64,000 nucleotides of DNA, taken from NCBI GenBank assembly GCA_951406725.2, contig OX597832.1:18104001-18168000 (forward strand). Reading direction: 5' to 3'. This document shows positions 4,797 through 62,796 of the stretch, piece by piece (position 1 is the stretch's first letter; each line of letters begins with the position of its first letter). The translations under genes were made by a program, and so were the position numbers. The notes below the pieces were generated by a model. The model searched no databases and was not told the DNA's origin. It worked only from the letters and a program-made list of their open reading frames with translations. Source of the DNA: Octopus vulgaris (Eukaryota).

Positions 4797-4858
<62 letters not shown>

Positions 4859-4859
<1 letters not shown>

Positions 4860-5290
4860 CGGGAAGCTTTATGAAAATAAACAAAAGACGAAGGCAGGTG
4901 GAAAACAAACGAACAATTGTATTAGTATGGCGCTCAGGAAATATAAATAAAACAAGTCTTTAACGTTTCGAGCCTACGCTCTTCAACAGAAAGATACACA
5001 GAGAGAGAAAAACACAGAAAGAGGAGAGAAAAAAATCAACGAATCAACATGGCGATCTGATTTCGGCCAGAGGTCAAAGATCAAACATGAGACGCGAGAG
5101 CGAAATAAGGGGAGATAATAGGGTTGATAAAAGGGTTGACGGACCAGCTAAAAGTGCGTGGGAGGGGTCTGGATGTGTGTATGTATAGGGTTGGTGTATA
5201 TATTAGTATGTATAAGGGTGTGTGTGTGTGTGTGTGTGTGTATGAGAGAGTATTAGTGCGTAGGATTGGTCTGGACGTGCGTAATATATA
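4859..5290 (-). mobile_element. Family A (subtype A1) hammerhead-bearing element abutting (TA)n; Penelope-like non-autonomous fragment
   Basis: Closely similar to 10340-10640; terminus abuts a (TA)n tract; contains hammerhead motif. Confidence 0.75.
4957..4994 (-). ncRNA. Minimal type-I hammerhead ribozyme motif (family A1)
   Basis: Minus strand: TCTTT-CTGTTGA-A-GAGC gtag GCTC-GAAA-CG-TT-AAAGA (stem I TCTTT/AAAGA, stem II, palindromic ACGT stem III). Confidence 0.65.
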
Positions 5291-5297
5291 TATATAT

Positions 5298-5577
5298 CGG
5301 TAAAAACGGTAAGATAACAAAAGATATATATATATATATCGGTAAAAACGGTAAGATAACAAAAGAAAGAAAGAAAGCTCAATATTATGTAAATAGAGGA
5401 AATTTATTTGTTAAATATGTGACAATTATTCGGTAGCCAAGATAAAACTCTGAGTTTTAGATGCCGAGGTGGAAATCCACACCACCATCTAAGATAACCG
5501 AACAGATGATGTTGTGGATTTACACCTTGGCATCCGAAACTCAGAGTTTTATCTTGGCTACCAAATAATTGTCACAT
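5298..5577 (-). mobile_element. Family B fold-back element (palindrome 5417-5577) with duplicated 26-bp tail in (TA)n
   Basis: Homologous to 37221-37517 and 62522-62786; ~75-bp inverted arms; tail CGGTAAAAACGGTAAGATAACAAAAG occurs at 5298 and 5340. Confidence 0.8.
5491..5555 (+). ncRNA. Type-I hammerhead ribozyme motif (family B, degenerate core)
   Basis: AAGATAA-CCGAACA-GATG...CATC-C-GAAA-CTC A GAG-TT-TTATCTT; stem I AAGATAA/TTATCTT. Confidence 0.55.
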
Positions 5578-5587
5578 GTTATTTTAC

Positions 5588-5765
5588 AGCAAGGGATGGT
5601 GGCGACCCCTGTTGTACTATTTCGCCCCAACTTTCTCTCACACTTTCCTCCTGTTTCTTGAGTTACGCTGCGATGGACTCGCATCCCATCCAGCTGGGGG
5701 GAACATATAGGCCATAGAAACCGGGAAACCAGGTCCATGAGCCTGGCTAGGCTTGAAAAGGGCTC

Positions 5766-9435: not shown

Positions 9436-10339
9436 GAGAAGGAGAGAGATAGAGAGACGAAGTGACATAAAGTCTATATTAATTATGAACTTGTTTTTCT
9501 CTTACGCTTTCTTCCAACTTTTGTTCGATATCTCTACACGTCCATCAATCTAGCTGTCTCTCTTTCACCAGTTTGCCTTTCACACCCTCTCGTTTTCACT
9601 GTCAGATTTGTTTTTGTTTGATTTTCTTTATTTTTTCATGCCAGGGGGAGAAAGCGGGAAGAGATCTCTGACAACGAAGATATAACCAATCTTGAGGTGC
9701 TGGTCTTAATGCATTCGACGATTTCATTCGTCTAAACATGTTGGACACAAAGCGATGTTTGAGATTGTTATCAACATTATTTAATTCAGTCTTTGTAACG
9801 ACAAAGAGTGATTTTCGAGAGATTGCATATATATTTTTTTTCTTCTTTTTACATCTCATTGAGAGATAAGTTGCTTAATTGTATTGGAAAATATTTCTTG
9901 AACATAGTTGCAAAGTGAAAATTGATGACAGCTAACAAAACTGGATTTAATCATATTTGGAACAAGATTAATAAATATATGAACAAGAAATATAAGATGT
10001 ATGAAGATAAGGCACTAACAATTGCAGTTGCATATTTGTATATTCATTTTTATTTCAAAGATATTTTTAATAATCTTTTTTGTAATTGAGAAATTGCGAG
10101 TGCCAATATATTATTCGCTATTTCTCAGCATTGCAAAAAGATTTCGAATATGTCAAACATATACGGGATTTCTGAGCATTGCAGGGATAACAACTTGCAG
10201 TATAATTGTGGAAGATCTAAGTGAAGCAAAATACAGTATATCATACCTGTAGGTCAAGACTAGAACATTATACTATATATATGGCCTCAGCCGGATGGCT
10301 GAAACAAGTAAAAGAGTAAAAGAGTAAATATACATATAT

Positions 10340-10905
10340 AACGGGAAGCTTTATGAAAATAAACAAAAGACGAAGGCAGGTGGAGTACAAACAAACAATT
10401 GTATTAGTATGGAGCTCAGGAATATAAATAAAACAAGTCTTTTACGTTTCGAGCCTACGCTCTTCAACAGAAAGATACACAGAAAAGAAACACGGAGAGA
10501 AACAAGGAGAGAAAAAAATGCGTGCAGAAGCTAGCGATTCAACATGGCGATCTGATCCTGGCCAGAAGTCAGAGATCAAACGTGAGACGCAAGAGCGAAA
10601 ATAGGGGAGATAACAGGGTCAATAACTTCGCCCCAACATAAGGGTGCGTGTGTGTATAAGTGCGTATGAAAGGTCTGGTCGTGTGTATGTATGTATGATG
10701 TGATGTGTAATGTCGTATGGTGTAGTGTAGAGAGAGGAGATGGGGGGAGAGGGGAGGAGAGATGAGGGAGGAAAGATGCGGGGGGAGAGGGGAGGAGGGA
10801 GGGAAGTGAGAGAGGAGGGAGAAGAGGAAAGGTGAGAGTGAGGAGGGTGAGATGAGGGTGAGGGTGAGAGTGGGGAGAAGAGGGAGGAGGAGGAGGAAGG
10901 GGGAG
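10340..10905 (-). mobile_element. Family A1 hammerhead-bearing element followed by a purine-rich low-complexity segment
   Basis: Homologous to 4859-5290 over ~300 bp; terminus at a TA run. Confidence 0.75.
10438..10475 (-). ncRNA. Minimal type-I hammerhead motif (family A1, GUA cleavage triplet)
   Basis: TCTTT-CTGTTGA-A-GAGC gtag GCTC-GAAA-CG-TA-AAAGA. Confidence 0.65.
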
Positions 10906-10933
10906 ATATATATGTATATATATATATATATAT

Positions 10934-11790
10934 ATATACAAGTGGGCTGAAAAGAATAGCATGCAGTTCAATGCTGAAAAGTTTCAAGCTTTATGCTATC
11001 AGCATGCAAAACTAAATGCCATACCCAATAAATACACGGGACCTGGAGGGATTGCAATCCCAGAGGCACAATCAGTGCGAGACCTGGTTATTTACATGAG
11101 TGATGATGCAACCTTTTATGTGCATGTTGCTAAATTGGCAATGAAATGTAGGCGGCTGATGGAAACCATGATGGTCCTCTGGAGGACACTTATCCTAAGC
11201 CACTTTGACTATTTCTCTCAGCTATGGTCACCATCCAGTGTCAAGTTAATCACAGAACTTGAGGCGATCCAACGAAGCTACACGAAGAAGATAGCCTCTG
11301 TGCAGCATATAAACTACTGGGAAAGACTCTATTCCTTATAGCGTAGGCGAGAAAGATATGCCATAATATACATCTGGAAGATCCTAGAAGGACTTGTCCC
11401 AAACTTTGGCATCGAGAGTTACACAAATGCTAGAATTGGGTGCCACTGCATAGTGCCAATGACTCCAAATTTGCCATCAAGATATAGGACAAGATACTGT
11501 GATAGCCTGGGCTTCAGAGGCCCACAGCTCTTCAATATCCCAACGAAGAATCTGAGAGACCTGCAAGGGGTGGATGCAGATGTCTTTAAAATAAAACTGG
11601 ATCTCTTCCTGTCAGGTGTCCCAGATGAACCAACTTCACGGCAGGAGGTGCAGATGAGGGCACCAAATAGCAATTGCTAAAAAGCATTCATGAAGTAAAT
11701 TTATGTAGCATCACCAAATGGCGGTGCCCCAGCATGGCCACAGCTCGTGAGCTGAAACTAGATAAAATAAAATAAAAAGATAAAAAATTA
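10934..11790 (+). mobile_element. 5'-truncated CR1/L2-group LINE: ORF2 C-terminus (disrupted) + 3' UTR + A-rich tail
   Basis: KWAEKNSMQFNAEKFQ..., LEAIQRSYTKKI...YWERL, RRERYAIIYIWKILEGLVPN, GPQLFN...FKIKLDLFLSGVPDEP are typical post-RT motifs; stops and deletions present. Confidence 0.9.
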
Positions 11791-13222: not shown

Positions 13223-13620
13223 TAGGAGTGGCTGTCTGGTAAGTAGCTTGCTTACCAGCCACATGGTTCAGGGTTCAGTCCCATTGCGTGGCACCTTGGG
13301 CAAGTGTCTTCTACTAGAGTCTCGGGCCGACCAAAGCCTTATGAGTGGATTAGGTAGACGGAAACTGAAAGAAGCCCGTCCTATATATGTATATATATGT
13401 TTGTGCGTGTGTGTGTTTGTGTGTCTGTGTTTATCCCCCTAGCATAGCTTGACAACCGATGCTGGTGTGTTTACGCCCCCGTCACTTAGCGGTTCGGCAA
13501 AATAGTCCGATAGAATAAGTACTGGCCTTACAAAGAATAAGTCCCGGGGTCGAGTTGCTCGATTAAAGGTGGTGCTCCAGCATGGCCGCAGTCAAATGAC
13601 TGAAACAAGTAAAAAAAAGA

Positions 13621-13621
<1 letters not shown>
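13223..13621 (+). mobile_element. SINE-1 (tRNA-derived head, internal microsatellite, LINE-like tail), near full length
   Basis: GGAGTGGCTGTCTGGTAAG...GGTTCAGTCCC head; tail GGTGCTCCAGCATGGCCGCAGTCAAATGACTGAAACAAGTAAAA; many copies in window. Confidence 0.9.
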
Positions 13622-13673
<52 letters not shown>

Positions 13674-19687: not shown

Positions 19688-20757
19688 TGCGAGCGGGTGC
19701 CGTAATGTTTCTGGCTTTGGGTAAAAGATAATAGAGGAGGATCAATTAATTATGATTTTATTCAACATACTCTCCTCTAAGATTCACACACAGTGATCCT
19801 TTAATTATTCTAAGCCCTGACAAAAGACCTCGGAAATTTTGGACTCCAAACAGGTTTCTGTAACAAACGATCATTTCCGAATCGGATGAAAATTTCGTTT
19901 ATTCTTCGGTCTTTCGCATAGTTCCTCAAACAGAGAGAAGCATTGATGGTGCAACCCTTTATAAAATTTACTCCATCTTTGTCCAAAACACTGAAGCCAG
20001 AATTTTTCCAGCCGACTTCTGGTTCTAAAACTACATGGGACGCGAGGAACGGCTGTGATTCCATCCCATTCATAGCTGCTTGGTCTGGAGGTCATGATGA
20101 TGAAGCCAAGTTTCATCGATGGTGACTAAAAAGCCATACAATCAGCCTCTCCTACTCAAACCGACCCAAAATTTACATTGACGTCGTCAAACGGACGCGC
20201 TTCTTCTAAGCGTTCAGGCATTATTGCACCCGTTAGGTGGAAATCTTTCTCATGTCCAGAATATTGCGGATAACGTGATCAAATCTTTCGCGGGAAATCC
20301 TCCGAGTCTCAGCTATGATTTTAGCTTAATTGCGGTGGCTTCGAGAATCCTGACGTGTACAACATCGGATTTTGTGCTCTGTAGTCGCGGAAGTTAGCTG
20401 TTCTGAACGAGGTTTATGTGTGACAACGAAATGTTCAAACCTTGACACCCAGATTTTCACTCCGGAGTCAGATAAGCTGTCATTCTTCAAGACTTCCTTC
20501 ACATTGCTATGGATTTTCGCCGCTCCTTCCTTTTACAAAAGGATGAACTTCATGACCTCCCATGCTTTACTTTTACAAAATCCACAGTCGGAGTTCCCAT
20601 GATTCCTTAGATCTGCAAACAAAGAGAAAGATTTATTGTATACTATCATGTTTGCATATATTCTCCCAAATAACTGCCCTGCCTAGCCTGTGAATGTAGA
20701 AAGTTCTTCTCTTTCAGGATACACTTGAAGCCACGAAGCTTTCAGCAAACTCTTGTA
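19688..20757 (-). mobile_element. Decayed mariner DNA transposon with both TIRs; transposase pseudogene
   Basis: Minus strand EVMKFILL*KEGAAKIHSNVKEVL..., ILDMRKIST*RVQ*CLNA*KKRVR, LVTIDETWLHHHD. Ends are degenerate inverted copies of TACGAGGGCGTGCTGAAAAGTTCCTGGCTT. Confidence 0.85.
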
Positions 20758-23478: not shown

Positions 23479-23887
23479 TACTCTTTTACTTGTTTCAGTC
23501 ATGTGAATGTGGCCATGCTGGAGCACCACCTTCAGTCGACCAAATCGACCTCAGGACTTATTCTTTGTAAGCCTAGTACTTATTCTATCGGTTTCTTTTG
23601 CCGAACTGCTAAGTTACGCGGACGTAACCACACCAGCATCGGTTGTCAAGCGATGTTATGGGGGGGGGGGGGGCAAACACAGACACACACAAATATATAC
23701 ACACACATACATATAAAAATATATATACATATACGACGGGCTTCTTTCAGTTTCTGTCTATCAAATCCACTCATATGGCTTTGGTCGGCCCGAGGCTATA
23801 GTAGAAGACATTTGACCAAGTTACCACAGAGTGGGACTGAACCCGGAAGCATGTGGTTCGTAAGCAAGCTACTTACTACACAGCCAC
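23479..23887 (-). mobile_element. SINE-1, near full length
   Basis: Reverse complement of 13223-13621. Confidence 0.9.
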
Positions 23888-35830: not shown

Positions 35831-36427
35831 TTCATTTATGTTTTTGTGTGTTTGTTTTAGGATTTTTATTCATATCTTTATTTCTTGATTACTTCTATAA
35901 ACCATTTTTCTTTTCTTACTTTCATTCATTTAACATTTTCTTTCTTTCTCTCTTTCCTTTTGAATGTCTGTACACTCACTTCTGGTCAGACTTCCTTTCT
36001 ACTTTCTTTCCATTTCTTCCCTCTTTTTATTTTTATTCTTCTTTTCCTGCATAGTCTTTCATTCTACTGTCCTTCATTTCTTACATCATTCTTTCTTTTT
36101 CTCCTTCGTCTTTTCTTCATATATTCATTTATTATCCTGCAGCCGATCTATTCATTCAATTTCCCTTTTATAATCCGGCCAGTCACTCAATATACATTTC
36201 CTTCTATCTTACATTTTATCCCTCTCCCTCTTACACCTCTTATATCGGTTTCTCTCTTTTCTCCCTCTCAGACTGTCTTCGCTCGCAAGACTAAGCTCTT
36301 AAAATTAGTAATTTCCATACTTTCTTTCCGACCCCAAATATTTTTCTCAAGATTTTGTCTGTTCACACGGCATACACACACACATACACACACACACACA
36401 CACACACAAAATAAATATAAGTATGTA

Positions 36428-36597
36428 GGCGCAGGAGTGGCTGTGTGGTTAGTAGCTTGCTAACCAACTACATGGTTCTGGGTTCAGTCCCACTGCGTGT
36501 CACCTTGGGCAAGTGTCTTCTGCCTACAGCCCCGGACCGACCAATGCCTTGTGAGTGGATTTGGTAGACGGAAACTGAAAGAAGCCTGTCGTATATA

Positions 36598-36652
<55 letters not shown>

Positions 36653-36860
36653 TTGTGTGTCTGTGTTTGTCCCCCTGGCATTGCTTGACAACCGATGCTG
36701 GTGTATTTACGTCCCCGTCACTTAGCGGTTCGGCAAAATAGACGGATAGAATAAGTACTGGGCTTACAAAGAATAAGTCCCGGGGTCGATTTGCTCGACA
36801 AAAGGCGGTGCTCCAGCATGACCGCAGTCAAATGACTGAAACAAGTAAAAGAGTAAAATA
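36428..36860 (+). mobile_element. SINE-1, full length
   Basis: Complete head GGCGCAGGAGTGGCTGTGTGG and tail GAAACAAGTAAAAGAGTAAAA. Confidence 0.92.
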
Positions 36861-37131
36861 GTATGCATGTATGTATGTCGTCCGCAAATGAGATCCAGAG
36901 ATTCTCTGTATGCAAGACACTTCGTAATGATAAAATGATTCAAACTTGGACGCCGATGTCTTTACAGGGAACGATTCGACAAGGTAAAGAAAAGCTACAC
37001 GAGGGAACAAAACGGTATAGAGGCAATGAAGAAGATAAACAATTTAGAAACATTAAAGATATTAAATATGTAATTTTGGGTATGAAATAAGAAACGTCTA
37101 TATCTATATCTATATATCTATCTATACACAC

Positions 37132-37182: not shown

Positions 37183-37222
<40 letters not shown>

Positions 37223-37319
37223 TAAAACGGTAAGATAACAAAAGAAAGAAAGAGACCTCAATATTATGTAAATAGAGGAAATTTATCTATACAATAATAT
37301 GTTACATTACTCGATAGTC

Positions 37320-37381
37320 AAGATAAAACTCTGAGTTTCAGATGCGGAAGTGGGAATCCACGACATCTCTTCGGTTATCTC
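37320..37381 (-). ncRNA. Type-I hammerhead motif (family B)
   Basis: GAGATAA-CCGAAGA-GATG...CATC-T-GAAA-CTC A GAG-TT-TTATCTT. Confidence 0.6.
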
Positions 37382-37428
37382 TACAGTATCCGAAGTATTT
37401 CATTAACTGGATAATATCCTTTAAGAGA

Positions 37429-37490
37429 GAGATAACCGAAGAGATGTCGTGGATTCCCACTTCGGCATCTGAAACTCAGAGTTTTATCTC
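37429..37490 (+). ncRNA. Type-I hammerhead motif (family B)
   Basis: GAGATAA-CCGAAGA-GATGTCG tggattcccactt CGGCATC-T-GAAA-CTC A GAG-TT-TTATCTC; 7-bp stem I, 7-bp stem II (one G-U pair). Confidence 0.65.
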
Positions 37491-37513
37491 GACTATCGGG
37501 TAATGTAACATAT

Positions 37514-37592
<79 letters not shown>

Positions 37593-46442: not shown

Positions 46443-46973
46443 CACCTTTCCTTTCCTGAGCGTCCGATAATATTTGACATGAACCACGTCCTCGCGTTTT
46501 TGTTTGTTTTGTGTTTTTTGTGCTTGTCTTTCGTTTTTTTGTTTATATGTGTGTATATATGTATGTGTGTATATATATGTGTGTGTGTGTGTGTGTGCGT
46601 CTGTGTGTATTTGTATACACAGACACACACACACACACTCTCACTTAAGCAAACATAAAAATATGCATATATATACACACATATAGATAGATAGATAAAT
46701 AGGTAGATATTCACAATGCTATGCCTTTACAACTTTTCCCACATCCCTGCCTGTTGCCTATTGCTGTTAATATAAACAAATGATGTATAAGATATCTGTA
46801 CAGGCAAATTATATTTTGGTAGAATATCTCAGAAACAGACCTTTATATATTAAATGTAAACATTATTTTTCATATATATTAATTCACAAAAATTGCAGAA
46901 AGGAAAGACACGTATTCTGTTTAGACAATGTCTCAGTGTTAACGATTGTTACATCAAGAGAGTCATTTATACA

Positions 46974-47090
46974 AATATAATTAACACACATACCTGTTCA
47001 GTTCCACTCCTCTATTACTTAGATGGATATTTAACCAACTGTCTGACAATAAAGGAGTAGAATAAAACCAGTGTGTGTGTTAATTATATT
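46974..47090. repeat. Imperfect ~117-bp palindrome (MITE-like hairpin)
   Basis: AATATAATTAACACACA...CTCCTCTATT / AATAAAGGAG...TGTGTGTTAATTATATT. Confidence 0.65.
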
Positions 47091-47428
47091 GGCATAATGA
47101 CTCACCCTAGACAAGATAAAATGTTTTAACAGACGTATTCACATAAAGTATCTTGCAAACCTGATACAAATCTATTACTATCTTATCCATATTATCTCCA
47201 ATTGCATATGCCGTTAATAAAACCTATAAGTGATAAAATCAATTAAATTCTAGCCATTGGGATCCTGCTTTCAACAATTAACAGCGTGATTGTGTAATTC
47301 ACCAGTGAGTGGAAGGAGTCCACATCGCCTCACTCAGGTTGACGAGGGCTCTCTCACAGGGCACTTCTCTTTCTTTAGAGAAGCGTGGATGATAATCCTC
47401 GCTGCAATCTAAACCCTATTGAACACCT

Positions 47429-48335: not shown

Positions 48336-48578
48336 TATTCTGTTGCGTCTGGGGAGAGATTTTCTTTTTGTGCCTTATAATTTAACACACTAACCGATAA
48401 AATGTCCTCTAATTTCTTATTTTTATTTTCCTAAAATTTCCGTTGCGTCTTGCAAACTTTACTGCAAGACGCAACGAAAATTTCAGGAAAATAAAAAAAT
48501 AATTGGAAATTTTACCAGTGAGCGTGTTAAATTATAATGCACTAAGAAAGAATGCCTCTCCCCGGACGCAACAGAATA
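48336..48578. mobile_element. Palindromic MITE (~243 bp), TA-flanked
   Basis: TATTCTGTTGCGTC...GACGCAACAGAATA with ~115-bp arms and an inner repeat CGTTGCGTCTTGCA/TGCAAGACGCAACG. Confidence 0.8.
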
Positions 48579-55714: not shown

Positions 55715-55744
<30 letters not shown>

Positions 55745-55745
<1 letters not shown>

Positions 55746-55925
55746 GGGAGAGTTCACGTAAAAAAAAACAACAAAAGACGGAGACAGGTGGTGTATAAAA
55801 CAAACAGATGTATAACACTCAGGAAATTGAAAAAAGTCTTTTATGTTTCGAGCCTACGCTCTTCTACAGAAAGGGACACAGAAAAAAACAAGGAGAGAAG
55901 CATGGAGAGAAAAAAAGGAGAGATA
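55745..55925 (-). mobile_element. Family A1 element with hammerhead motif at 55838-55873
   Basis: CTTT-CTGTAGA-A-GAGC gtag GCTC-GAAA-CA-TA-AAAG; terminus abuts (TA)n. Confidence 0.7.
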
Positions 55926-56449: not shown

Positions 56450-57111
56450 TACGAGGGGCGTTCAATAAGTAATGCCTCTGACCCACTTGCAGTTGTTTGA
56501 TCTAGCTGAAAATTTACATGTGTAATTATTTATATCTCTATAGATTAAGTGGCAAATTACAGCTCTGAACTAATTGTAGTTTCTGATATACAGGTGTTTG
56601 AACTGAGTCACGTGTGAAATGGAGCCTGTTGAGTGTTGAGCAGTGATCCGGTTTTTGTATTTGAAAGGACGCACACCACGGGAGACTTTTGATGAAATGA
56701 AAGTAACTTATGGTGATGATGCCCCATCATATGACCTTGTAAAACGCTGGCATCGTGAATTCAAACATGGTCAGAACTCTGTGGAAACAGCTCCCAGATC
56801 TAGTCGCCCCCCTTCTGCCATTGATGAGGCATCTGTCCGTCAAGTTGAGGCTGCCATTTTGGAAGATCGACGCATAACTATTCGCCAAATAGCCCATGAG
56901 GTCAAGTTTAGTACCGGGTCTGTGGAACCTATCATTCATGACCATTTGCATATGCAAAAGGTGTCTGCCAGATGGATTCCCAGGTTGCTCACACCTTTCC
57001 AGAAGCAAGAACGCGTTGAGTGCTCGAGGATGAATTTGGAGATGTGCCAAGAAGATGAGTCAAAATTTTTCAAAAGACTGATTACACAGGATGAAACCTG
57101 GGTCCATCACT
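56450..57111 (+). mobile_element. 3'-truncated mariner transposon (left TIR + transposase N-terminal half)
   Basis: TA-CGAGGGGCGTTCAATAAGTAATG left end followed by transposase-coding sequence. Confidence 0.92.
56619..57111 (+). pseudogene. Mariner (Mos1/SETMAR-like) transposase pseudogene
   Basis: MEPVEC*AVIRFLYLKG...VKRWHREFK...SARWIPRLLT...ITQDETWVHH; premature TGA at 56637 and truncation after the first catalytic Asp. Confidence 0.92.
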
Positions 57112-58179
57112 GGTATTGTCAGAGTCACAGTAGAAACATCGCACGTCTTTACTAGAATCTTTGTGTAGGGAGTTTTGCTATGCCTGGCGGCACCGTCGCT
57201 TCCTTGGCACGCCCTCCAATGTATCAACCCTGTAATTAGACTGGTAATTATTTTATTGATATCAGTAGGAGTGTTGTGAACTGAACTTGGATTGGGTTTC
57301 AAATCCAAAGGGAAATGTCAAGTGACCATATTTCACAGTATAAAGGATCACGTTGTACTGATTTTCCCAGTACAATGGGCTACCAACGAAAAACCAAAGG
57401 AAGAAAGAAAATACAAGCAACAAAAGCTGTCATTTTTATGTAACGATATCCGTAACGACATGGTATTATATTTCGCAACTAAACTACATAACGTCCGGTT
57501 CACTGCGATTATGCAGTGTCTGGGACGATGTATTAGGCGATAAGTCAGGGATAACCAAATCCTTGAGACATAATTGTTAAACTGAGAATATAAAAAAAAG
57601 AGACGGAATGCTATGCCTTTTTATTCACAGGTACGCATACCACGTAATCAGGTTAACACCACAAAATGGCGTCATTTGTGTGCATTTAGAGAAGTCTAGC
57701 CTCTTGTAAGCATTAACAATATATTTCCAATATAAGAATATCTTGCATGATTTTTATGAATCAATTTTCTTCTCGTTATTGATTACATTGATTTTTATTT
57801 TAGTTCAGTATCTGTTTTGATCGAGATTATCAATGACCCCAGAATGGCCATGTATTGATACAATATGTTACGACAAATCGTTGCTCACGATCGAGTGTTG
57901 CTTTGTAACATGTATCACACTACAACTGACGTCTTTCATTAGACCGATGTAATGAAAGACTGTGACTAACTGAATCCTAGCCTACTCAACCTTCACCGAC
58001 AACTTAGCTGATACATATTTTTTAGTTGATTTACATATTTTTAAATAAAGCAGGAATCGAAATTTGACCGAACATATTACCTTCAAACCGTCTTCTTAAT
58101 TCGTATATAACATTATCTTCCCTCAAGCAAATCATACACAAACACTTCATATATATCAATACAAACGCACATACAGGCA

Positions 58180-61934: not shown

Positions 61935-62103
61935 CGTATTACCATGATAGATCGCTAGCTACTAAACCTTTTTCTATTTTGTTCCCCGCTTTAATTTGTG
62001 TTCCTTTCTATCGAAGAGCGTAGGCTCGAAACATAAAAGTATTTCTCACCTCCCGAGTGTTAGACTAATACATCTGCTTGTTGTTTACACATTCGTCTTC
62101 GTC
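61935..62103 (+). mobile_element. Family A1 element with degenerate hammerhead at 62004-62039
   Basis: CTTT-CTATCGA-A-GAGC gtag GCTC-GAAA-CA-TA-AAAG. Confidence 0.65.
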
Positions 62104-62105
62104 AT

Positions 62106-62517
62106 ACTCTTTACTCTTTTACTTGTTTCAGTCATTTGACTGCAGCCATGCTGGAGCACTGCCTACAGTCGAGCAAATCGATCCCGGGACTTATTCTTTG
62201 TAAGCCCAGTACTTATTCTATCAGTCTCTTTTGCCGAACCGCTAAGCGACTGGGACGTAAACACACCAGCATCGGTTGTCAAGCAATTCTAGGGGGACAA
62301 ACACAGACACACAAACACACACACACCCACACACATATATATATACATATATACGACAGACTTCTTTCAGTTTCCGTCTACGAAATCCACTCACAAGGCA
62401 TTGGTCGGCCTGGGGCTACAGCAGAAGACACTTGACCAAGATGCCACGCAGTGGGACTGAACCCGGAACCATGTGGTTTGTTAGCAAGCTACTTACCACA
62501 CAGCCACTCCTGCGCCT
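62106..62517 (-). mobile_element. SINE-1, full length
   Basis: Reverse complement of 36428-36860. Confidence 0.9.
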
Positions 62518-62521
62518 ATAT

Positions 62522-62786
62522 ATATAATATGTGACAATACCTATGATAAATCTCCGAGTTTCGGATGTCGGGGCGGAAACCCATCTCTTCAGTTATCGGC
62601 CATCGAAATAAATGCTATTTTTCTATAATCCGATAATTGAAGAGATGGCGGCGTGGGTTTTCGATCCGATATACGAAACTCGGAATTTATCATAGCTACC
62701 GAAAAATTGTCGCGTATTATATTTACAGATAAATTCCTCTATTTACATAATATCGAGGTCTATTTCGTTGTCTTGCCATTTCTTTC
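62522..62786 (+). mobile_element. Family B fold-back element (palindrome 62522-62722)
   Basis: Tail TTCCTCTATTTACATAATATCGAGGTC is the reverse complement of the tail in the 5298 and 37221 copies. Confidence 0.78.
62545..62597 (-). ncRNA. Type-I hammerhead motif (family B) with canonical CUGAAGA box
   Basis: GATAA-CTGAAGA-GATG ggtttccgccccga CATC-C-GAAA-CTC G GAG-AT-TTATC (U16.1 mutated to A). Confidence 0.62.
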
Positions 62787-62796
62787 AATATAAATC

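Follow-up and report, generated by a model that had tools for sequence, protein, structure and literature searches.

What kind of element is folded back on itself, carries a hammerhead-like motif in its arms and ends on one side in a tail beside a run of (TA)n? Three such elements, called E1, E2 and E3 here, lie in the 64,000-nucleotide stretch of Octopus vulgaris DNA that we analysed (the window), which is animal-type DNA, approximately 34% G+C and rich in microsatellites. The initial annotation had placed three copies with a common tail and a long palindrome in this stretch. We find all three where it put them and related by sequence: E1 at 5298/5340-5589, E2 at 37220-37517 and E3 at 62521-62790, the last oriented the other way round from E1 and E2. 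We are fairly confident that they are dead 3'-terminal (pLTR) pieces of a Penelope-like retroelement (PLE), probably of the Hydra-clade type, and that the fold-back was likely formed separately at each insertion.

Read in the sense of the hammerhead, the elements share one layout: an inverted short arm, a spacer, a long arm and a tail of approximately 73 nucleotides at or near (TA)n. The spacer is 45 nucleotides long in E2 and approximately 31 in E3, and there is none in E1. An inverted 5'-truncated copy with a tail at a single end, the insertion unit of PLEs, is thus present in three of three copies, and (TA)n stands at, or no more than approximately 15 nucleotides from, five of the six ends, in keeping with the (TA)n insertion of the Hydra clade. 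In E2, the one-sided 3' tail (37220-37292, minus strand), which lies outside the palindrome, is bordered by a (TA)n run (37187-37219), the likely insertion target. The tail-bearing arm follows (37293-37382, minus strand), with its box at 37374-37368 (carrying the substitution U4C), the stem II region at 37367-37340, GAAA from 37339, the predicted cut after 37327 and the 3' strand of stem I at 37326-37320. Beyond the spacer (37383-37427) lies the inverted, tail-less arm (37428-37517, plus strand), with its box at 37436-37442 (again U4C), GAAA at 37471-37474 and the predicted cut after 37483; a second (TA)n run (37518-37561) closes this end.

The other two elements are less regular in their details. 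The tail and tail-bearing arm of E1 (5340-5489, minus strand) are without the box and without the 5' strand of stem I; they adjoin directly the inverted arm (5490-5589, plus strand; box at 5498-5504 with U4C and G8C, predicted cut after 5548), whose outer end is without (TA)n. Ahead of the main copy of E1 stand a duplicated tail end (5298-5324) and an AT run (together 5298-5339, minus strand). This doubling of the tail end within 5298-5366, with the AT run between the copies, is a pattern such as repeated priming or slippage would leave. In E3, the inverted tail-less arm (62521-62599, minus strand) has a canonical box at 62592-62586 and an A at position 16.1. It is followed by the spacer (62600-62630) and by the tail-bearing arm with its tail (62631-62790, plus strand; box at 62637-62643 with C3U, degenerate stems), which ends near (TG)n(TA)n. 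The inverted arm of E3 also adjoins a short TA run and one copy (62103-62522) of a SINE-like family of approximately 410 bp, which has more than ten copies in the window, including those at 13224-13640, 23479-23887 and 36422-36865.

How good a hammerhead do these arms contain? The succession proposed earlier (stem I, box, a GATG..CATC stem II, GAAA, a CTC-N-GAG stem III and a triplet) is present in the sequence, and a type-I hammerhead-like motif can be read in five of the six arms. A fully canonical core is found in none of the six. Both E2 arms carry U4C, the right arm of E1 carries U4C and G8C, and the long arm of E3 carries C3U and has a broken stem III. The short arm of E3 has a canonical box but an A at 16.1, and the left arm of E1 has no box and reads AAAA instead of GAAA. 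The CUGANGA box is therefore canonical in one of the five box-bearing arms; it is also canonical in two joint contigs from the public sequencing runs described below. GAAA, the pair A15.1-U16.1 and the NUH triplet (GUU) are all intact in three of the six arms (the right arm of E1 and both arms of E2). For a natural U4C hammerhead variant, much reduced activity in vitro is described (PMC3088659).

Of the stems, stem I has 5 bp and stem II 4 bp in all four arms checked. The stem III region is short and palindromic (a 4-bp palindrome with a 1-nucleotide loop), with a predicted self-duplex of -17.2 kcal/mol; the dimer-type stem III of the initial annotation is supported. Wherever stem II is intact, the arm has an extra pyrimidine on the 3' side of that stem, before GAAA, which is absent from the earlier parse; the canonical layout, with an unpaired nucleotide between 9 and 10.1 and a stem II that closes directly on GAAA, is not the one found here. 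The claim that stem I covaries between copies comes down, by eye, to a single pair, the outermost, next to the spacer (A-U in E1, G-C in the right arm of E2, G.U in the left), and a formal count over five arms gives no double-sided change in 11 pairs, the E1 row being one base short in that alignment so that the outermost pair is a gap there. A reading frame opened by the stem II ATG, on the model of the anole PLE, ends by eye after approximately 20 codons in E1 and E2.

Rfam gives no match in the window at gathering scores. At E ≤ 10, the matches to E2 and E3 include no hammerhead family, only a sub-threshold miRNA-type hairpin and other chance matches, so the Rfam check proposed in the initial annotation returned no hammerhead. 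A relaxed descriptor matched only the two E2 arms in the window, with one match in ten shuffled windows. As a reference we used 16 distinct hammerheads from Hydra-type PLE loci of other animals, excluding six overlapping duplicate loci; these loci come from animal-like DNA inside bacterial MAG records. Covariation among the 16 is strong, with 39 cells changed on both sides, a count reached in none of 500 shuffles. The covariance model built from them (R1, 48 positions) listed none of the E1-E3 arms at E ≤ 5, which may be explained by its stem II, much shorter than that of the arms. We also derived a modular score from the same 16, combining the box, GAAAC, the triplet and three stems with a free stem II length, its length limits chosen with knowledge of the E1-E3 arms. 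By this score, four arms are the top four matches of the window: the inverted arm of E2 (31.9 bits), its tail-bearing arm (29.4 bits), the short arm of E3 (25.6 bits) and the inverted arm of E1 (22.5 bits), with the next match at 16.1 bits. In 100 block-shuffled windows, the best match per window has a median of 15.1, a 95th percentile of 20.4 and a maximum of 24.7 bits, so that three arms score above all 100, while the long arm of E3, with 10.3 bits, is at background level. The proposal of a type-I hammerhead in each complete arm thus holds in part: the motif rises above chance and, judged on its sequence, is likely of hammerhead descent, but no core is fully canonical and the long arm of E3 does not stand out.

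Two pattern scans of metagenomes gave no match, and a scan of viral contigs gave none. Prokaryote genomes gave 15 pattern matches, none with an R1 match better than E 0.2, and these we took as chance. In the window itself, a minimal-hammerhead-like motif also occurs in another dispersed repeat (4843-5130, 10325-10625, 55728-55916, 61997-62039), at 10436-10477, 4955-4996 and 55836-55869 on the minus strand and 62008-62041 on the plus strand. Its stem II has 4 bp, its box is a variant at position 6, and the box is followed by the usual extra nucleotide; the motif accounts for three of the top four R1 matches in the window, none of them significant (E 0.09-0.8). The repeat is possibly another PLE end.

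What would RNA from these inserts do? The predicted fold of E2 has a minimum free energy of -162 kcal/mol (z -21.6), and none of 200 shuffles folds as well. In the fold of the whole element, hammerhead stems I and II have a predicted probability of 0.0, and forcing them costs 43-87 kcal/mol. For transcripts of either strand the long hairpin is predicted to win, giving dsRNA and not cleavage. Of the two properties ascribed to the inserts at the outset, long dsRNA hairpins upon transcription are therefore upheld as a prediction, and a working ribozyme in either direction is not: with the hammerhead buried in the hairpin and its core substituted, these inserts would not cut. Folding the tail-bearing monomer by itself gives a predicted pairing between the box region and the end of the tail, which is rich in pyrimidines (E2 37219-37384, minus strand; E3 62630-62792, plus strand). 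The registers differ between E2 and E3, and we claim no tail-box pairing switch.

We are interested in whether the palindrome spreads as a unit or is made anew at each insertion. In an alignment of the six arms (imperfect in stem II), 13 columns unite arms of the same copy and 2 unite arms of the same side. The two E2 arms are 97% identical to each other and 79-82% identical to those of E1. The spacers of E2 and E3 are unrelated, and contigs from the public runs add eight further distinct junctions. Of nine joints in these contigs, eight run from the tail or the left arm into the right arm. No two of them share a position and each is found in one contig; joints recovered from contigs are biased toward short inserts. 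Because the arms group by copy and the junctions differ, the palindrome was likely formed per insertion, a reading of the sequences that leaves little room for spread of the palindrome as a unit. Some of the variety of junctions could also stem from deletions that struck a palindrome later. Part of the E2 spacer (37389-37421), single in the window, matches, in runs X1, X6 and X10, a sequence of higher depth that is flanked differently on either side. This part is likely captured filler, and its source could be another repeat or the body of the parent element.

The same runs show that the fold-back family is abundant. Part of E2 is present in 20 of the 24 public runs listed, under four organism labels, and in four runs aligned to E2 at 80% likeness it matches 1695, 3385, 712 and 352 contigs. 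The tail has the highest summed depth in all four, approximately 1.4 million in X1 and X7 (which is not a copy number), and at the tail end, before 37224, all four have TA-rich loose ends. Depth over the box and the 5' strand of stem I is approximately 0.4% of that on the tail, which may reflect truncation, divergence of stem II, or both; the junction contigs have a depth of 11-83, compared with approximately 1e6 summed on the tail. From 37315 to 37339, which covers the 3' strand of stem I, the triplet, stem III and GAAA, no variant of at least 5% is listed in the four runs, and three are listed in 37310-37314. The extra pyrimidine (place 37340) is polymorphic between T and C in the four runs, at 26-30% of depth. 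We considered RNA editing as a source of A>G differences and rejected it: the same differences stand in DNA runs, and there is therefore no sign of editing.

The anatomy has parallels among described PLEs. These elements typically show a tail on one side and an inverted copy with a 5' truncation (bioRxiv 2021.04.23.441226, PMC3846280). The stem III, the flanking (TA)n and the single-ended tail of E1-E3 agree with the Hydra clade (Craig 2021). Minimal hammerheads sit in the pLTRs of metazoan PLEs (Cervera and de la Pena 2014, PMC4209133) and are, as here, of type I with a long stem II and an unstable palindromic stem III suited to a dimer; in Schistosoma mansoni, dual minimal hammerheads lie 100-700 bp apart on opposite strands (PMC4209133). 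Hydra-clade PLEs, Hydra-2_Amil among them, carry a type I hammerhead near the 3' end, like E1-E3 (PMC8557442), and a (TA)n preference is listed for 26 of 27 Hydra families (PMC8557442, Craig 2021). In File S2 of PMC8557442, 17 of the 26 Hydra-clade rows have the 4-bp palindrome with a 1-nucleotide loop, and five of the 26 have an identical ACTC-N-GAGT stem III. Penelope-3_HM carries the E1/E2 version of stem III with the same triplet (PMC8557442), and for Penelope-13_HM the supplement of that paper lists one hammerhead per strand besides an inverted, 5'-truncated copy, as in E1-E3. The pattern itself is thus already in print (PMC4209133, PMC8557442 supplement). In Octopus bimaculoides, the listed element Hydra-1_Obim shares the box and the first letters of stem II with our elements; we rejected identity with it, as stem I, stem III and the tail and 3' end differ.

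There are also differences from the Hydra clade. In E1-E3 the stem II region is longer (23-31 nucleotides), the U4C box is common and no ORF was found in the window. The extra nucleotide solely on the 3' side of stem II is a layout seen in none of the 26 Hydra rows, which counts against a PLE origin. The tail is longer than the 30-40 nucleotides usually quoted, and equals in length that of L018, one of the fetched PLE loci.

These loci supply a precedent. The ORF of L018 matches GIY-YIG weakly (E 3e-4); behind it come a hammerhead and a tail that closes with (TA)n. L019 (4860-5175) contains a fold-back of approximately 290 bp whose two strands each carry a hammerhead. Between its long arm and the 3' end of the ORF-bearing copy in L018, identity is 97%; its short arm stops approximately 78 nucleotides before the tail end, the same point where two ORF-linked copies end. 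A second family in L019 (5562-5975) has a like fold-back. The L019 fold-backs resemble E1-E3 in size, head-to-head arms, a hammerhead per strand, a similar one-sided tail and (TA)n ends, whereas they differ in their unrelated sequence, their canonical cores and a parent ORF in the same record set. In L036, a stem III and triplet of the E1/E2 type lie approximately 210 nucleotides after a Hydra-type ORF. DNA similarity between the E1-E3 family and the fetched PLE loci does not exceed chance. Anatomy, motif score, the Hydra-clade stem III and the L018/L019 precedent together support the link to Penelope-like pLTR ends that the initial annotation had drawn. Several bacterial MAG records (L016-L044) contain animal-type DNA carrying Hydra-type PLEs, likely as host contamination; in L016, such a PLE stands beside bacterial-like genes on a 492-kb contig.

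Four short motifs of the family were not found in the published texts searched. They are also absent from the supplement of PMC8557442, in which line breaks can hide matches, and from that of PMC13282606 as it stands without a consensus library. Among the matches listed for hammerhead and octopus, there is no ribozyme study beyond Craig et al. The family is possibly uncatalogued, and it may already have an entry in a repeat library such as Repbase or Dfam.

The formation of the fold-back can be pictured as follows. The reverse transcriptase/GIY-YIG endonuclease of a PLE would cut a (TA)n target on both strands; in vitro, the protein of an anole PLE cuts and extends both target strands (PMC11167929). 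One cDNA would initiate at the tail's outer end and a second approximately 73 nucleotides further in. In the anole PLE, reverse transcription begins at two sites that bound the tail, the template is uncleaved RNA, and the hammerhead cleaves only with the protein (PMC11167929). Both cDNAs would copy the uncut RNA through the hammerhead and halt near its 5' edge, and the two cDNA ends would then be joined head-to-head, either without or with a short filler between them. The hammerhead would be carried along as part of the pLTR. An alternative route to the fold-back would be self-priming, as proposed in PMC3846280.

Could the palindrome have spread whole after all? The family might be a palindromic non-autonomous element, whether a palindromic RNA master or a DNA transposon of the MITE or fold-back kind that targets TA, with the hammerhead a relic or a chance reading of nested repeats. 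Such an element would have the long inverted arms, the small size, the TA flanks and the very high summed depth, and neither Rfam nor the covariance model calls a hammerhead. Central deletions in palindromes can produce varied junctions, and could have done so here. We nevertheless regard this origin as improbable. With a tail of approximately 73 nucleotides outside the inverted repeat, the ends are not terminal inverted repeats; one end of E1 is without TA, and elsewhere TA runs hide any target-site duplication. Unrelated spacers in E2 and E3 and none in E1, arms that group by copy and eight further junctions all speak against transmission as a whole, the motif score beats that of shuffled windows, and L018/L019 link this anatomy to a PLE with an ORF.

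Two other explanations start from the ribozyme. In the first, which the initial annotation had named beside a non-autonomous PLE in speaking of a retrozyme-like family, E1-E3 would be stray monomer pairs of a non-LTR retrozyme, whose tandem repeats carry hammerheads that release monomer and circular RNAs. Non-LTR retrozymes are short, non-coding and PLE-related and have a type I hammerhead, as do E1-E3 (PMC7229834; bioRxiv 2026.07.22.740005). The dimer-type stem III and the size of 150-300 nucleotides fit as well, and animal retrozymes have been proposed to derive from PLE pLTRs and to leave solo monomers (bioRxiv 2026.07.22.740005). In contrast to the head-to-tail tandems yielding monomer and circular RNAs by which retrozymes are defined (PMC7229834; bioRxiv 2026.07.22.740005), E1-E3 are dispersed and head-to-head: none of the three copies has a head-to-tail repeat, and no joint in the public-run contigs goes back. 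The one-sided tail and the inverted copy are insertion marks of PLEs, and the cores are substituted, which makes a retrozyme origin somewhat more doubtful still than a palindrome spreading whole. A viroid-like RNA that had integrated, its ribozymes active in either polarity and its rod-like genome corresponding to the fold-back, would account for the length of approximately 300 nucleotides, a hammerhead-like motif per strand and the stable rod fold. But the two motifs are one sequence and its inverted copy, as the near identity of the E2 arms (97%) shows, the junction differs in every copy, no permuted or multimeric form was seen, and the hammerhead stems have a predicted probability of 0.0 in the whole element. 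We consider this origin very improbable, the least credible of those weighed. A PLE end folded back at insertion is the reading that we retain.

Where is the parent of these PLE ends? The initial annotation had looked to copies attached to a PLE ORF. Among 142 ORFs of the window, Pfam finds no reverse transcriptase and no GIY-YIG domain, and tblastn with two PLE ORFs from L018 gives no match in the window at E < 6. The scans of metagenomes and viral contigs and the fetched PLE loci yielded no parent. Since the window holds no such ORF, we class the copies as likely remnants or derivatives, and not as Hydra-clade elements. All five box-bearing arms start approximately 5-9 nucleotides from the box and share no sequence further upstream, which is tighter than random 5' truncation. 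Copies in the fetched PLE loci start anywhere from 49 nucleotides inside to more than 600 nucleotides upstream, though these loci were picked by their ORFs, which favors long copies. The uniform start of the arms at the hammerhead edge leaves room for a short non-autonomous master that begins at the hammerhead, which the arm sequences make possible. A further reading, less probable than not, is a very abundant, SINE-like, non-coding parasite of Hydra-type PLEs. Its unit of approximately 165 nucleotides would run from a variant hammerhead (with the extra pyrimidine, and U4C in a subfamily) to a PLE tail, and priming on two strands would turn many insertions into near-perfect hairpins of approximately 90 bp, supplying the genome with dsRNA on which RNA editing or small-RNA pathways could act.

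The window contains other mobile DNA. Two palindromes (48336-48578 and 46960-47103) are long, have related ends and are MITE-like. Fragments of a mariner transposase lie at 56640-57152 (plus strand) and 20329-20532 (minus strand), with a Mos1 HTH by Pfam. The best named match of the former is a mantis shrimp protein, at 83% identity, and six of its 67 matches are from Octopus; this likeness may point to horizontal transfer. At 10868-11680 (plus strand) there are broken ORF pieces that we take to resemble the C-terminal end of a LINE; they have no Pfam match.

Read as an ordinary by-product of a PLE, the fold-backs are mainly useful for repeat annotation: they assign an abundant short repeat to a class and add a hammerhead variant. 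They also have a modest value as natural evidence on the formation of the inverted ends and tails of PLEs. If the short non-autonomous master is real, the family would define a minimal RNA for PLE mobilization in trans and would be a large source of dsRNA hairpins. Coleoid cephalopods edit their RNA heavily from A to I, and in that case these hairpins would be worth a look.
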